DNA of 64,000 nt from Candidatus Gastranaerophilales bacterium (GCA_045598245.1 JAZLLQ010000020.1:13772-77771), one strand, 5' to 3'. Positions 44,092-49,073 are shown, numbered from the stretch's first letter. Notes: a model not told the origin generated them from the letters alone. Translations and numbers: made by a program.

Positions 44092-45645
44092 TTATGCGGA
44101 CATTTTAATAAATATTTGCCATAAAAGTAAACTTGCGTATATAATCCAAAACGAGTTTGAGCCGATTATTTCTTTAAGATATGACAGTGTTTTATTTGCC
44201 ATTGTTGTTTTGTGTTTAGATGATAGATTTAGCTTCTTATAAATGTTTATTTTGGCTATTCTAAGAGAGTTGTTAAATGGAAATTTTTTTTCTAATTTAC
44301 TTGATATTTCATTGACGTCTATTATAATTCCTGTTTCATCTTCAATACTGTAATTTTGCGGTGTTTTGTTTGCAAATAGCAGAAAGTATTGAAGTGCTTT
44401 TTCATAATTCTTTTGTTTGATATGGCAACAGGTAAGAATGAATGTAAAAATTATGCTCAATTCTTCTTCTGTTTTTTTACCGAGTATTTCTATTACTTTA
44501 TTATATTTTTTAGAAAAATAAAAAAACAAAATCTGAAAAAATAGCAGATTTTCATCATCGGGGTTGTTTCTCAAATAATTTTCAAATTTTATTAAGCCTT
44601 CTTTATATTTTTTCATTCCGAGATAACAGTATGCATATTCCGCAAAAGTATCTGCTTCGGGAAAACCGAGAGATACAGCTTTATCTAAAAGTTTTTTTGC
44701 ATTTTTATGATCTTCTTTAAAGTATAAGGTTGTACACGCTTTTCTGTATACACACCAATTATTTTTCGGAGCAAGTTCGTATCCCTTTTTGGCATATTGA
44801 ATAGCTTTATCTTTGTCAGTTCTTCCATATATCCACGATATATTTGAATATATGTATGCGTAATCTTCCGGTACTTTATCTGCAAAACATTCAATTGTTT
44901 TGAGGTAATATTTTAAGGCTTTTTCGTAGTTGCAGGTTGTATAATAGTAAAAATCAGCTTTGTGAGAGTATGTATAAAAATATTTTTCTGTTAAAAGTGC
45001 CTTATTTAAGTATTCAAGTGCTTTTTCATTATTACCCATAGAGAGATATATATCGGAGATAGAATCATAGACTCGTGTTTCTCCAAGCTCTTCTGCTTTG
45101 AGGTAATACTTTAGTGCTTCTTCGTACTTTTCTTGAGCGTCATAACAAAATGCTTTATATTCGTAGAATAATGGTTCATTTGGAAATTTTTTTATTGCTT
45201 TTGAGGTAAAAGCGTTTAGTTTAAAAAAATTTTTTTGTTTCCATAGCGAGCATATTATAGCTTGGTATATGTAGTAATGTTCCTGTCCCAGTTTTTCGGC
45301 TTTAAATAAATATTCCAATGCCTCATCAAGTTTGTTGTTTTGCCACAAAAACCAACCTTTTAGGTAGTAAACATCACTTTCATAATAATCATTTTCAATG
45401 TCGGACATTGCTTTATTGAGTGCTTTCATTGCGACATCACTCTCGTCAGTATTACAAAGATATGCAATATGACAGTACAGTCTGCTTGATTTATAACCTA
45501 ATCGCTCTGCTTCCTGAAATTTTTTAATGGCAAGTTCTCTCATTCCTGTTTTCTCTGAAAGGAAAACGCCTTCTGCGAAGACGGATGATGCTTTTGCAAA
45601 ATCACGTTTTTTTGACGAGAAGTTTATGATTTTTGCTTTTTTCAT
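44092..45645 (-). CDS. TPR-repeat protein
   Basis: Multiple TPRs; start moved to the ATG at 45645 (GGAGGTG RBS). Confidence 0.85.
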   Translation of the reverse strand: MKKAKIINFSSKKRDFAKASSVFAEGVFLSEKTGMRELAIKKFQEAERLGYKSSRLYCHIAYLCNTDESDVAMKALNKAMSDIENDYYESDVYYLKGWFLWQNNKLDEALEYLFKAEKLGQEHYYIYQAIICSLWKQKNFFKLNAFTSKAIKKFPNEPLFYEYKAFCYDAQEKYEEALKYYLKAEELGETRVYDSISDIYLSMGNNEKALEYLNKALLTEKYFYTYSHKADFYYYTTCNYEKALKYYLKTIECFADKVPEDYAYIYSNISWIYGRTDKDKAIQYAKKGYELAPKNNWCVYRKACTTLYFKEDHKNAKKLLDKAVSLGFPEADTFAEYAYCYLGMKKYKEGLIKFENYLRNNPDDENLLFFQILFFYFSKKYNKVIEILGKKTEEELSIIFTFILTCCHIKQKNYEKALQYFLLFANKTPQNYSIEDETGIIIDVNEISSKLEKKFPFNNSLRIAKINIYKKLNLSSKHKTTMANKTLSYLKEIIGSNSFWIIYASLLLWQIFIKMSA

Positions 45646-45667
45646 TAACACACCTCCACATACATTC

Positions 45668-45694
45668 ATATCGGCATATTTAATGAAATCTTTA
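45668..45694 (-). promoter_or_regulatory. Sigma28 (FliA) promoter
   Basis: TAAAGATT-N11-GCCGATAT. Confidence 0.8.
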
Positions 45695-45780
45695 GATAAA
45701 GCGTTTATTTTAAAAAAAAATGTTACAATGTTTTACAAGTTATATGGACAATTACCTGTTTTAATAATAGAATAGTGTAG

Positions 45781-45941
45781 TGATAATTGAATAGTTTTGA
45801 TAAAATGTCGGGACGTAGCACTCTGCCGAACAAAACGATTGAGAATCGTTTTGAGAGAGGTTGGTAGCGCATAATTTCGTTTTAGTGATATAATACTTGC
45901 ATTGATAATTGAATAGTTTTGATAAAATGTCGGGACGTAGC
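45781..45941 (+). repeat. 39-bp direct repeat (45781-45819 / 45903-45941) spanning the tRNA-Pro upstream region and first 11 nt
   Basis: tgataattgaatagttttgataaaatgtcgggacgtagc occurs twice. Confidence 0.9.
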
Positions 45942-46007
45942 GCAGCTTGGTAGCGCATCACCTTGGGGTGGTGGGGGTCGCAGGTTCAAATCCTGTCGTT
46001 CCGACCA
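45931..46007 (+). tRNA. tRNA-Pro (GGG)
   Basis: Acceptor CGGGACG/CGTTCCG, D-loop TTGGTA, anticodon loop TTGGGGT, GGTTCAAATCC, encoded CCA. Confidence 0.96.
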
Positions 46008-46091
46008 TTTAAAACAAAAGCCAATAACTGTTTTCAGCTATTGGCTTTTTATTTTTGTGTAATATTTGTGTAATCGACAGGATTTGAACTT

Positions 46092-46259
46092 TAATGCAGA
46101 CAAGCTGCGTTTCCTCACATGTTCGGAAAGTCGTGTCATCCCGACCATTTAAAAAGAGTCGTAGGAATATGGCTCTTTTTTGTTGACACGATTTGAACAT
46201 AATGCAGACAAGCTGCGTTTCCTCACATGTTCGGAAAGTCGTGTCATCCCGACCATTTA
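46092..46259 (+). repeat. 60-bp exact direct repeat (46092-46151 / 46200-46259), each ending in tRNA-like CCGACCA followed by a terminator hairpin
   Basis: taatgcagacaagctgcgtttcctcacatgttcggaaagtcgtgtcatcccgaccattta occurs twice. Confidence 0.92.
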
Positions 46260-46760
46260 GCCACTTAAAGAAGTGGCTTTTTTTATAATAATACGACCAA
46301 TTTGATTTGTACGGATATAATGAAATGACCAATTTGCCTTGTACGGATAAAACGATTTTTTCGGAAAGTTGGCTTTATTTACAATAAATGTCCGATTTAG
46401 TTGGAAAGGAATTTTTGTTTTCTGGCGAAATTTTGCTATTGGTTTAGGTTTTAGCGATTTCCTACATGTTGGAATTTTGTGCATGAAATCGGACAGTCGG
46501 GACAACTTTCGCATATAAGTTAGCTACTTGCTCTTTGAAATAATGCCGTAAAATCGCATGTTAGTAAACAAAGTAGCGAAATCCATTGTAGCCCGATTTG
46601 AAAAAGTCGGAAAAGGTGCCATACAAACCAATAACCATTTTATCTGTTAAGTTACAGTTGCGGTTTGAATTAGAATTCACCATTAGATTTTTTGTAAATA
46701 TTTGTTAAATAAATAGCAAATAATTTTTTTAGATATTTTAAAACACATAGTAATAATTAT

Positions 46761-48731
46761 ATGAAACTTGTATTTATGAGAATTAACTTTAATTCTAATT
46801 TGAATTTTTACACATCACAAACATTACAAAAACAACAAAAAATTTCAGCAACAGATAATTCAAGTATTACGAAATCTTCTGATTTTGTTAAACCTTCTCT
46901 TGCAAATTTGCAAGCTAATAAATTGAGTTTCGGTTGGACTGCAACAACTACTCTCTTATCGCATGATTTAGGAGCAGAACCAGCTTCACATCCTTTTACT
47001 AATGCTCTTTTTACGGATACATCCGAGGCTGTAGATGAGATTATGAGACAATATTCAATTGGTTCAAAACGGGTTGATACTTATGATATTGGATTATATA
47101 CAAGATATATAGGGAATCAAGTATTAGACGGAATATTAGAACGAGGATTTGATATTAACGGTAAGTATGGTAAATATGATACAACTTTATTATATAATTC
47201 TATCAATACTATTAGACCGAATATACGTTATATTAAGGCATTGATAGATCGTGGTGCGGATATAAATATAGAAATTTTTAGTCAAAATGCGTATGAATGT
47301 GCCTGTGAGAATCGCTTAGCAGATGCAGCTAAAATTTTGCGAAATCATAAGGATTTTAAAATAGACAAGATTGATAGCTCTGGTAATAATACTTTTATGA
47401 ATGCTTGCAGGTGCGGTTCACTTGAACTTGCAAAATCTCTGTATGATACCGGTAAATTCAATCTTACTGATAAAAATTCAAGAGGAGAGAATGCATTGGA
47501 CTTAGCACTTGATGAAAGTGTATTGAAAAATGGATGTAACACTGAAGAACTTATTAAATGGTTGTATTCTACGGGAGAATTCACTTCTTCTCTTAAAGAA
47601 AAAAAGAAATATGAAGACAGATTTATGCAAGCTTGTTGTGAAAATGAATTAAGAGTTGCAAATATGCTTTATACATTAGGTATTTACAATCTTACAGATA
47701 AAAACATATTTGGAGAGAATGCTTTTCAACATGCTTTGGCATATAAGAATATGCTGAATTGGTATTTAAGTAAATTCTATATATCAGAAAATGATATTAA
47801 GTATGCAAAAAAAATAGGACAAAATTATCCTTATGGCTATGATTATGTATTACCGGCAATAGAAAGATATCAAGCAAGATTTAATGTCGGAGAAATTATT
47901 GAACGAATCGTCAATACGAAAGATTCATTAGAAAGACATATGAAATTAGGCTTGAATGAAGAACATCTGAATAAGCAAGATGAAATTGGTCAAAATGCTT
48001 TAATGTGGGCATTAGATTTCAATGATTTTGAGCTCTTTAAAAAATTATTACCGCTTACAAAAGATATTAATGCACAAAATATTGACGGAGATACCGTTTT
48101 AATAAAAGCATCGGCAAGAGGACTAACTGATTTTGTTAATGCTATTTTAGAAAGAAAAGATGTTAAAATTGATATTAAGAACAATGATAATTTATCTGCA
48201 ATAGATTTGTCGGAACAGTTTGAACATCCTGAAATAACAAAACTCTTAAATATTTCAAGACCGAATATTTCTCACTCAAAAAACAGCAGTTCAAGTGAAC
48301 AAAATACTGTTTCAATCCCAAATTTAACGGATAACACATTAGCTCATATTAGCCATGGTAGCGAGACAGATTGCCTGACACATAATCCAACGACAAAGGA
48401 ATTGATAGAAAGATACTGGTTAAGGAGTAAAGAAAGAAAATGTTTATATGAAGGTCGCCCTTATGATTCTATAAAAGCTGTACCTGAAGACAGACGGAAA
48501 TATATAGAAATATTGGAAGAGCATATAAGTGAACAAGATACAGTAGGGATACCAGCTCATAGTAGAGCTCGCATGATATCTGATATATTAAATGATGAAG
48601 AACCTGATCTTGAACATTTTGACTATGCGCCAACTTTTATGAAGTTTGAATATCTTCTGGGTTTAGGGATAGCAGTTTTAGCACATGGTACTTATAGAAA
48701 AATACCAAAAAATATCGATGGAAGAAGGTAG
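46761..48731 (+). CDS. Ankyrin-repeat protein
   Basis: Repeated G.NAL..A / G.T.L..A...G...V..LL motifs; N-terminal ...KLSFG. Confidence 0.85.
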   Translation: MKLVFMRINFNSNLNFYTSQTLQKQQKISATDNSSITKSSDFVKPSLANLQANKLSFGWTATTTLLSHDLGAEPASHPFTNALFTDTSEAVDEIMRQYSIGSKRVDTYDIGLYTRYIGNQVLDGILERGFDINGKYGKYDTTLLYNSINTIRPNIRYIKALIDRGADINIEIFSQNAYECACENRLADAAKILRNHKDFKIDKIDSSGNNTFMNACRCGSLELAKSLYDTGKFNLTDKNSRGENALDLALDESVLKNGCNTEELIKWLYSTGEFTSSLKEKKKYEDRFMQACCENELRVANMLYTLGIYNLTDKNIFGENAFQHALAYKNMLNWYLSKFYISENDIKYAKKIGQNYPYGYDYVLPAIERYQARFNVGEIIERIVNTKDSLERHMKLGLNEEHLNKQDEIGQNALMWALDFNDFELFKKLLPLTKDINAQNIDGDTVLIKASARGLTDFVNAILERKDVKIDIKNNDNLSAIDLSEQFEHPEITKLLNISRPNISHSKNSSSSEQNTVSIPNLTDNTLAHISHGSETDCLTHNPTTKELIERYWLRSKERKCLYEGRPYDSIKAVPEDRRKYIEILEEHISEQDTVGIPAHSRARMISDILNDEEPDLEHFDYAPTFMKFEYLLGLGIAVLAHGTYRKIPKNIDGRR

Positions 48732-48794
48732 TTTGTAGGTGCAATTTTTTGCACCAATCATCAAATTCTCTGTTACTTTTTCTCAAATTGACTG

Positions 48795-49073
48795 TTAATT
48801 TACAGCAATAGCTAATTTAGGATCATCAATTTCATCTGCACCACAAGGTTTCCAAAAATCTTCATAATACAAATTGGTTGCTTCCTCTTTTGTTATATAT
48901 TTTACATCTTTATATGGTAAATTTTTCCTTGTTAGATAAGCATTAAAAGTTCTTTGAGTTACCCCCATATTTGTAGGTCCACCTTTATCATTTTTATGAT
49001 TAATATATCCTGCTTCAGCAGGAAATAAAAATTCAAGTGCTTTTTCAAAATTTTCTTTAGACATAATAGTCAT
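48795..49073 (-). pseudogene. Truncated glycoside hydrolase family 108 lysozyme
   Basis: EAGYINHKNDKGGPTNMGVT GH108 signature; ends at LAIAVN without the rest of the domain. Confidence 0.8.

Follow-up and report, generated by a model that had tools for sequence, protein, structure and literature searches.

The DNA considered here (hereinafter the window, 64,000 nucleotides in all) belongs to a draft metagenome-assembled genome of 2.06 Mb in 52 contigs, broken by repeats, from an uncultured gut bacterium of the order Gastranaerophilales, non-photosynthetic relatives of cyanobacteria. The sole tRNA called in the window, by both ARAGORN and the Rfam tRNA model (59.1 bits), is tRNA-Pro(GGG) (45931-46007), with its CCA end encoded; like this gene, the features described below lie on the plus strand unless indicated otherwise. 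The array that follows it has genes for TPR, thymidine kinase and ankyrin-repeat proteins as neighbours. Upstream of the entire tRNA-Pro locus there is a sigma-70-like promoter, TGGACA-17-TAGAAT (45745-45773), recognized by consensus match only, and then a partial copy of the 5' side of the tRNA gene (45776-45897), which consists of the leader with tRNA bases 1-11, a module of the form CTCTGCCGA-hairpin-GAGAG (45819-45859) that also precedes other tRNAs, and then GTTGGTAGCGCAT. Positions 45776-45819 of this partial copy are repeated directly at 45898-45941, with 95% identity.

On the 3' side, the tRNA gene is followed by terminator T1, a bidirectional hairpin (46008-46054, arms 46011-46030 and 46035-46054), and by a conserved 20-nt spacer, TTTTTGTGTAATATTTGTGTAAT (46055-46074), made of two copies of TGTGTAAT; only this terminator and spacer, and no foreign cargo, are found between the intact tRNA and the first of two tandem units. 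Unit 1 (46075-46147), which starts 68 nt past the tRNA on the same strand, opens with a left arm, CGACAGGATTTGAAC (46075-46089), that is the reverse complement, at 15 of 15 bases, of tRNA-Pro(GGG) positions 53-67 (45984-45998), that is, of the T-loop, the 3' strand of the T-stem and 2 nt. It continues with a core (46090-46130) that contains a hairpin (46093-46111), a UUCCUCAC tract and the T-loop-like segment GTTCGGAAAG (46121-46130), and ends with a right arm, TCGTGTCATCCCGACCA (46131-46147), which is a direct copy of the last 17 nt of a different proline tRNA, tRNA-Pro(TGG). After terminator T2 (about 46148-46183), which is also present behind both unit copies on another contig of the same genome, C22, unit 2 (46185-46255) repeats this organization, with a left arm (46185-46198) that begins GACACGATTTGAAC, a core (46199-46238; hairpin 46201-46219, GTTCGGAAAG at 46229-46238) and a right arm (46239-46255) that corresponds to the tRNA-Pro(TGG) 3' end including CCA. 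Terminator T3 (46256-46285, a stem at 46259-46278 followed by a T run) is overlapped by two tandem copies of a 32-nt repeat (46284-46347), each of which may carry a degenerate left arm, ACGACCAATTTGA (compare ACGACAGGATTTGA), a weak resemblance detected by eye. On the minus strand, a 107-aa open reading frame (46009-46332) spans the three terminators.

A search of the region 45500-46800 against Rfam at E <= 10 returned the tRNA plus chance-level matches only. The match to HPnc0260 (48 bits) was rejected, being under the 59-bit threshold of that family and resting on the antisense strand of the tRNA. T1 together with the spacer that follows it is kept in another genome of the same genus (G002) and in two loci of the family that we denote f3 (L041 and L047), and the spacer, which is retained in L030 as well as in these two loci, is kept in families f1 and f3. 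It includes a candidate -10 box, TAATAT, about 7 nt ahead of unit 1, and so might possibly act as a weak promoter; a promoter scan of the locus called none ahead of the units, this TAATAT included.

Composition and predicted fold of the units

The original prediction for this locus described an array of tRNA-derived units, and most of its structural details were borne out. The starts of both units are indeed reverse complements of a tRNA T-arm, the hairpin AATGCAG-ACAAG-CTGCGTT is found in both, 60 nt are identical between them (46092-46151 and 46200-46259), and the three terminators (46011-46054, about 46151-46183 and 46259-46285) differ and are unrelated to one another. The description of the 3' part of each unit as a diverged T-loop and acceptor 3' strand was right in that both units end in GTTCGGAAAGTCGTGTCATCCCGACCA and wrong as to the divergence. 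The second proline tRNA of this genome, tRNA-Pro(TGG), is located on contig C15 and has the 3' end ...GTTCAAATCGTGTCATCCCGACCATT; the GTTCGGAAAGTCGTGTCATCCCGACCA strand equals its last 17 nt plus the first 3 bases of its trailer, with zero mismatches, compared to 3 mismatches in 13 between the right arm and the adjoining GGG tRNA. Similarly, the left arm of unit 2 reproduces exactly, in reverse complement, the T-loop and T-stem (3' strand) of tRNA-Pro(TGG). Unit 1 is a hybrid, with a GGG-type left arm and a TGG-type right arm. The presence of TGG-type units behind a GGG gene, together with this hybrid, implies that units move or recombine between paralogous tRNA loci.

The module is predicted to fold into a hairpin-rich rod in which the left and right arms close a helix, whereas an acceptor-3'-strand tail of about 10 nt with CCA remains free and is directly followed by the terminator. 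For unit 2, the rod with a free CCA tail that was part of the original prediction was recovered, with a tail of 10 nt, at -24.6 kcal/mol (z = -4.1, with none of 200 shuffled sequences folding as well). The fold of unit 1 is poorer (z = -1.45), its GGG-type left arm and TGG-type right arm giving one mismatch. Among the six plus-strand units that were folded, unit 2 alone clearly beats the shuffled sequences, the other five having z-scores from -1.45 to +0.21. Shuffled sequences fold as well as the minus strand of the unit does (z = 0.04).

The units are without an anticodon arm and an acceptor 5' strand, and neither ARAGORN nor Rfam calls a tRNA there. A tRNA pseudogene on the minus strand was also considered, given that this strand offers an acceptor 5' strand, a D-arm-like hairpin and a T-loop; it was ruled out by the lack of T-stem pairing and of an acceptor 3' strand and by the z-score just given, and it would contain C.A where the plus strand shows G.U. 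Membership of the integron attC sites was likewise rejected: the arm ends TTTGAAC and GTTCGGA match the R'' and R' consensus at just 5 of 7 positions each, by eye, and the cargo on contig C22 (see below) sits within a unit, not between units.

Distribution and covariation in Gastranaerophilales

The units of the window are not isolated. A 55-nt core pattern gave 2 matches against 0.00 expected, and the wider search for the core that the original prediction had proposed turned up further copies in the same genome, on contig C22, and in relatives. In the genome of the same genus already mentioned (G002), 2.3 units with GGG-type arms follow tRNA-Pro(GGG). In a genome of another genus (G003), there are three units without CCA, in agreement with the tRNA gene itself, which is without CCA. 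Yet another genome (G001) has one unit behind tRNA-Ser(GGA), in which the core is the same and the arms and the terminator are both copied from tRNA-Ser; behind its tRNA-Pro(TGG), there are two complete units and a third copy of the right arm, with a core that is different though related. A covariance model built from seven units, R1 (a home-made model, the E-values of which are rough), matches 19 of 401 Gastranaerophilales genomes, spread over two families and 7 of the 64 genera, and in the phylum-wide sample of 401 genomes the R1 matches are confined to Gastranaerophilales. With the core pattern, no matches were obtained in viral contigs or in JGI metagenome contigs, and in the genome contig collection only two relatives were matched. 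Thus, in these collections, the units are a Gastranaerophilales-specific family of tRNA-linked repeats, the sequence of which is unrelated to that of the E. coli repeats discussed below.

The 37 units that could be aligned follow tRNA-Pro(GGG and TGG), tRNA-Ser(GGA and GCT), tRNA-Arg(CCT), tRNA-Glu(TTC) and tRNA-Lys, and the set also includes arrays with Met-type or Pro-type arms in loci where the tRNA was not called. A tRNA was called for 27 of the units, and 15 of these have a right arm that is identical, with no mismatch, to the last 13 nt of the adjoining tRNA; in the left arms, 0-4 bases, mostly 0-2, differ from positions 53-67 taken in reverse complement. Across 13 Pro-linked loci from different genomes, the left arm is 90% identical, compared to 48% for the core. 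Furthermore, of the two T-loop variants, ATTTGAAC and ATTCGAAC, the left arm tracks that of the respective tRNA, even though the constant GTTCGG within the unit would pair with either, so that the arm must be either re-copied from the tRNA or selected to match it. Many R1 units are tandem, with a period of about 95-140 nt, and the number of tandem copies varies, from 2 in the window and 2.3 in G002 to 3 in G003, G245 and G233. Many units are placed at contig ends, and the arrays often finish in truncated units, both of which would be expected of unstable repeats irrespective of function. Genes for Fic, RnpA, glutamate dehydrogenase and flagellar export come after the truncated last unit in G003; an integrated element past this unit was considered and rejected, there being no second att site in 20 kb and no integrase. 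A pair of filled and empty tRNA-Pro(TGG) loci from one genus (L015 and L014, respectively) shows that, in the filled locus, the old terminator was shifted downstream and a new one was imported. Taken together, the arms tailored to many tRNAs, the hybrid unit 1, the truncated end units and this pair of loci indicate that the family clearly spreads and turns over at the DNA level. The units are non-coding, share the strand of the tRNA gene that they immediately follow, and come in tandem numbers from 1 to 3 or more.

The covariation analysis that was proposed along with the original prediction supports a conserved fold, above all that of the core hairpin. In the 37-unit alignment, which was fitted to the model, standard pairs occupy 89.5% of the pair cells, as opposed to 36-40% when the partners are slid by 1-3 columns. 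In the core hairpin, the sequence of which is independent of the tRNA, both sides have changed at 5 of the 6 pairs and 93% of the cells are paired; the variants include GCAG/CUGC, GCGG/CCGC and GUGG/CCAC, with the ACAAG loop constant, as well as shorter forms such as GCA-AGUA-UGC. By contrast, covariation of the closing helix proves little alone because both arms are copied from the tRNA, so that it is partly automatic, and the uncompensated left-arm mismatches in some units (in G002 and in unit 1 of the window) indicate that the pairing of this helix is not strictly kept. The T2 stem is held through variants at one position, namely G.U in the window, G-C on contig C22 and A-U in G002. In helix 2, U.G pairs occur at two positions, in 15 and 19 sequences; these would become C.A mismatches on the opposite strand, which argues that the plus strand is the one that folds.

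The genome from which the window comes has additional elements of this kind on both sides of its tRNA genes. On the 3' side, units with this or other core types are found behind tRNA-Met (2), tRNA-Phe (1.5), tRNA-Leu-CAA (1) and tRNA-Pro-GGG (2), and also behind tRNA-Gly-UCC and tRNA-Gly-CCC. A mirror-image arrangement, built from the leader, the initial 11-20 nt of the tRNA and a core that in many cases has an inverted D-arm behind it, precedes tRNA-Phe (3 copies), tRNA-Val-UAC (2), tRNA-Val-GAC (2), tRNA-Leu-CAA, tRNA-Arg-UCU, tRNA-Pro-GGG and tRNA-Pro-UGG. On contig C22, 4.5 kb of DNA interrupt one unit exactly where the left arm meets the core; this case stands alone, and C22 ends in an assembly break within the repeat. 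The cargo encodes a 118-aa open reading frame, a RelB/YafQ pair, a 641-aa ankyrin protein and a 184-aa open reading frame, and amounts to two cassette-like modules with a conserved start, AAATGTCCGATTTAGTCGGAAAG..., and a conserved end, ...CTGTTACTTTTTCTCAAAnnGAnTGTTAATTTACA. In the window, the ankyrin gene that comes after the array (about 46385 to 48806) is bounded by the same modules, as are three cassettes on contig C47, located behind tRNA-Glu. No further split units, with the left arm and the core parted by cargo, were found at the Phe, Met and Leu loci. These cassettes are hints that the palindromes formed by tRNA ends may also serve as landing sites for accessory cassettes.

Comparison with known tRNA-linked repeats

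In general design, the units closely resemble the tRNA-linked repeats (TLR) of E. coli, which have been known since 1978 (Egan and Landy, 1978; Rudd, 1999) and which, when located behind tRNA genes, have no known function (PMC8144298). E. coli K-12 has 22 TLRs in ten loci, one to five in each, and the last 18-19 nt of a TLR are identical to the 3' terminus of the immediately upstream tRNA or rRNA, a repeated end that has been proposed to act as an RNase E or processing signal (PMC8144298). The rRNA-linked representatives RrA, RrB and RrF are found behind rrnA, rrnB and rrnD (Stenum et al., 2021; PMC8144298), between two terminators; RrB arises when the first terminator is read through, and the RNAs are cleaved behind 5S, at an RNase E site, and in vitro they bind Hfq and CsrA (PMC8144298). 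In the tRNA-Tyr operon tyrT-tyrV, we find that every 178-nt unit includes GGGGAAGGAT, which is ATCCTTCCCC of tRNA-Tyr in reverse complement, and terminates in AATCCTTCCCCCACCACCA; in the consensus of the Rfam family RtT (RF00391), the GGGGAAGGAT and ATCCTTCCCC segments are paired and CCACCACCA is left single-stranded.

The likeness to the Gastranaerophilales units extends to several levels. Both kinds of elements come immediately after a stable-RNA gene and share its strand, presumably within the same operon in the present case, and both occur in tandem copies (1-5 in E. coli). In both, the closing helix is made of an inverted and a direct copy of the tRNA end, namely of its T-stem and the beginning of the acceptor, and leaves free a tail of about 9-10 nt that ends in CCA. 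The order tRNA-T1-unit-T2-unit-T3 in the window mirrors the order 5S-T1-rrB-T2 of the terminator-flanked RrA, RrB and RrF; a counterpart of the latter behind 5S rRNA was sought in the window genome, the assembly of which contains no 5S gene. As regards the identity of the 3' end, in E. coli the last 18-19 nt, CCA included, equal those of the gene immediately upstream; the last 17 nt of the window units equal those of tRNA-Pro(TGG), on another contig, and in 15 of 27 related units the match to the adjoining tRNA is complete over 13 nt.

There are also differences. The RtT elements and the units described here share no similarity of sequence or under the covariance model: RF00391 does not match 45500-46800 even at E <= 10 and gives no match at the gathering score in five related loci, the cut-off for membership being 45 bits and the positive control, four E. 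coli units, scoring 133-138 bits. The E. coli units are 130-178 nt long, compared to about 72 nt here; each unit described here has its own terminator, its host belongs to another phylum, and the same genome holds the mirror-image 5'-side family. Furthermore, expression has been demonstrated in E. coli, whereas the RNAs of the present units are putative. By architecture, then, the units share the TLR/RtT design, yet by covariance-model score they lie outside the Rfam family RF00391. The suggestion in the original prediction that the array might represent a new family of tRNA-mimic small RNAs is therefore only partly sustained: the design does fit the E. coli tRNA-linked repeats better than it fits integration scars, but elements of this kind are not new. 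A literature search for such elements in Melainabacteria found none.

Two other systems also bear some resemblance. The trnF pseudogene arrays in the plastids of Brassicaceae are tandem partial tRNA copies beside an intact trnF gene, with variable copy number; they differ from the units in that they are pseudogenes with no conserved foreign core and no terminators. In E. coli, the trailer of a tRNA gives rise to a functional small RNA, 3'ETS-leuZ (Lalaouna, 2015, as cited in PMC8144298). Like the putative unit RNAs, it derives from the 3' trailer of a tRNA operon, from which tRNA-processing nucleases set it free; unlike the units, it has neither a copy of the tRNA end nor an inverted arm nor tandem repeats, and it ends at the single terminator of its operon.

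Origin and possible role of the units

Partial duplications of tRNA genes that result from integration were reportedly described by Reiter in 1989 and by Williams in 2002. Such integration is typified by direct repeats of the tRNA 3' end, as in the attL/attR duplications at tyrosine-integrase islands and prophages (PMC9897764). The original prediction included the possibility that the array consists of serial att-site scars of an element targeting tRNA-Pro; on this view, integrase-driven elements repeatedly entered the tRNA-Pro 3' end and lost their interior, so that remnants of the attR type stayed behind. The direct repeat downstream of an intact tRNA and the downstream displacement of the original trailer in L015 compared to L014 are features that the units and the attL/attR duplications have in common; the interruption of the C22 unit by 4.5 kb of accessory genes and the accessory ankyrin cassette behind the window array point in the same direction. 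However, integrases are absent at the examined arrays (the window, G003 and C22), and of the 3 matches to PF00589 in the genome none is near the arrays, two being Xer-like and one being located on the phage-like contig C16; in the window the repeats are not separated by anything, cargo included; and in G003 no second tRNA-end copy or att site occurs within 20 kb. Moreover, the same architecture, with a conserved and covarying core, is found behind at least six other kinds of tRNA, which is not expected of one integrase specificity, and the inverted arm, which the attL/attR duplications do not have, plays no role in known attP or attB sites. We therefore regard integration scars as an improbable source of the units. 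A one-off, neutral local duplication, with neither a family nor a function, would at least account for the 60 nt that are identical between the two units, so that the last duplication must be recent; nevertheless, with the architecture conserved in 19 genomes of 7 genera, this view, which the original prediction would have had us adopt had there been no transcription and no other copies or conservation, is refuted and retains virtually no probability.

The remaining alternatives concern what the inverted arm is for and how the module spreads. The left arm might act in cis as a trap for the tRNA: in a read-through RNA, the left arm and, in the subfamily of the window units, the core as well would pair with the T-arm and D-arm of the tRNA and thereby mark mis-terminated precursors for decay or keep them unfolded. 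The left arm is the best-conserved part of the unit, and in the minimum free energy fold of 45931-46290 the T-arm is base-paired to the left arm of unit 1 and the D-arm to CAAGCUGCG, but this 360-nt fold has an ensemble frequency of 0.0001. By eye, the complementarity to the D-arm is missing in the Ser- and Arg-linked units and in the f3 core variants, and, the window units bearing TGG arms, only the left arm of unit 1 fits its neighbour; such a trap appears improbable. A more serious contender, though clearly a minority one in our judgement, is that the units are gene-less selfish DNA, a module that spreads among tRNA genes by a target-templated or recombinational process in which the local tRNA end is copied once inverted and once direct, the RNA being a by-product. 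This would explain why one core family, its arms fitted to the tRNA in question, occurs behind at least seven kinds of tRNA, why the left arm tracks the T-loop variant even where pairing would not demand it, and why there are variable copy numbers, truncated array ends, a hybrid unit 1, a displaced and a newly imported terminator in L015 compared to L014, and a mirror-image family 5' of many tRNAs. Against it, no enzyme or intermediate was identified, no copies turned up in viral or metagenome collections, and a pure double-stranded DNA process leaves unexplained the covarying core and the strand-specific G.U pairs, which folding of single-stranded DNA would fit. This proposal is compatible with the units being transcribed and, for that matter, with the explanation that we favour below. 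An extension of it, in our view rather unlikely, holds that TLR-type modules are widespread gene-less elements that write their specificity from the target and that, in this lineage, the arm-terminator-arm palindrome docks accessory cassettes such as those with ankyrin and RelB/YafQ genes. The core would settle behind or before a tRNA gene, the end of which would be copied once inverted and once direct, and the palindrome would consist of the right arm, the terminator and the next left arm; the hint in this case is the split unit on C22.

The explanation that we favour, with somewhat better than even confidence, is that the units are a Gastranaerophilales-specific family of the TLR type that would give rise to trailer RNAs by terminator read-through, be handled by the tRNA 3'-end machinery and change in copy number by recombination. 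Under this hypothesis, RNA polymerase would pass T1, the terminator of the tRNA, or start at a weak promoter in the spacer, and transcribe the unit until stopped at the next terminator. The unit would then be freed by a cut just past the CCA of the preceding tRNA, and its tRNA-identical 3' segment would be recognized by the same 3'-end nucleases that act on the tRNA. Given such an origin, the amount of unit RNA would track the transcription of the tRNA operon; read-through may be rare, however, because T1, with 15 pairs, looks strong. Copy number would shift through unequal recombination between the repeated tRNA ends. As for a role, a protein or a purine-rich RNA might bind to the conserved parts that are predicted to be single-stranded, namely the ACAAG loop and the UUCCUCAC tract, and the unit RNA could thus bind a protein or an mRNA through the exposed loop and the UUCCUC tract; alternatively, it might be a mere selfish passenger.

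There is also a practical side to these elements: assemblies are interrupted by them at tRNA loci, and they may be misread as integration scars or tRNA pseudogenes. The origin of the TLRs in E. coli is unexplained, and the Gastranaerophilales family offers a second, independent data set, with covariation and with filled and empty sites, plus a mirror-image family on the 5' side. The same design now appears in an unrelated sequence family, in a distant, uncultured phylum and at many tRNAs, and this recurrence argues for a general process that produces or selects such elements rather than for an enterobacterial accident.

Spacer and unit variants on the 3' side

At 46055-46074 lies a spacer in which TGTGTAAT occurs twice. 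This spacer and the sequences flanking the terminator T1 (46011-46054) are kept across two families of the order (in the window and at loci L030, L041 and L047), and in these two families the T1 stem varies by compensatory changes while the spacer and flanks stay conserved. At L041 and L047, the block of spacer and T1 flanks is placed after the unit rather than after the tRNA.

Behind tRNA-Gly there is a second 3' unit family, one that has no obvious inverted arm. At L017 and L024, in relatives, a longer core of about 100 nt or more comes after tRNA-Gly(UCC), and next to it stand a direct copy of the tRNA 3' end and a terminator; a similar longer core is found in the window genome behind both tRNA-Gly(UCC) and tRNA-Gly(CCC). 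At L064, on contig C28 of another genome of the order (G292), repeated tRNA-Lys-like copies with an insert of about 100 nt past the anticodon region interleave with units of the family.

Accessory cassettes and a split unit

Cassette-like accessory modules that share a conserved start, AAATGTCCGATTTAGTCGGAAAG, and a conserved end, CTGTTACTTTTTCTCAAAnnGAnTGTTAATTTACA, are placed 3' of tRNA genes in the window (~46385-48806) and on contigs C22 (100270-104698) and C47 (12780-15350) of the same genome. Their cargo comprises ankyrin-repeat proteins, a RelB/YafQ pair and small ORFs; no recombinase was identified for the modules at these three sites. In one C22 unit (parts at 104724-104811 and 100192-100252; loci L028, L029 and L068), 4.5 kb of accessory cassettes separates the left arm, GACACGATTTGAACAT, from the core, which begins TAATGCAG; C22 itself terminates within the repeat, with an identity of 87/88 to window positions 46116-46203. 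At 46544-46668 in the window, a permuted tmRNA model gives a weak match (15.6 bits, E = 1.2) that is far under threshold and probably due to chance.

A conserved module and tandem units on the 5' side

The partial 5' tRNA copies that precede tRNA-Pro and other tRNA genes carry, where the D-loop would lie, a conserved module that consists of gcaCTCTGCCGA, a variable, covarying hairpin and GAGAGG. In the window this module spans 45819-45859, inside the partial copy at 45776-45897; elsewhere in the genome it is present at C15 7788, C5 6861 and 6972, C33 19784, C18 2972 and C29 164421, and further loci are L014, L015, L018, L021, L033 and L047. In the 3' unit that follows tRNA-Leu(CAA), the same module serves as the core, in reversed orientation. 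An A followed by CTCTGCCGA occurs 13 times in the window genome, against about one occurrence expected.

Units on the 5' side also stand in tandem, repeating every 91-92 nt or so, before the genes for tRNA-Phe (C35), Val-UAC (C27), Val-GAC (C42), Leu-CAA (C29) and Arg-UCU (C41), all in the window genome. Each combines the leader and the 5'-terminal 12-20 nt of the tRNA with a core, and the units of tRNA-Phe and Val-GAC have a reverse-complement D-arm as well. These tandem units are the mirror image of the 3' units.
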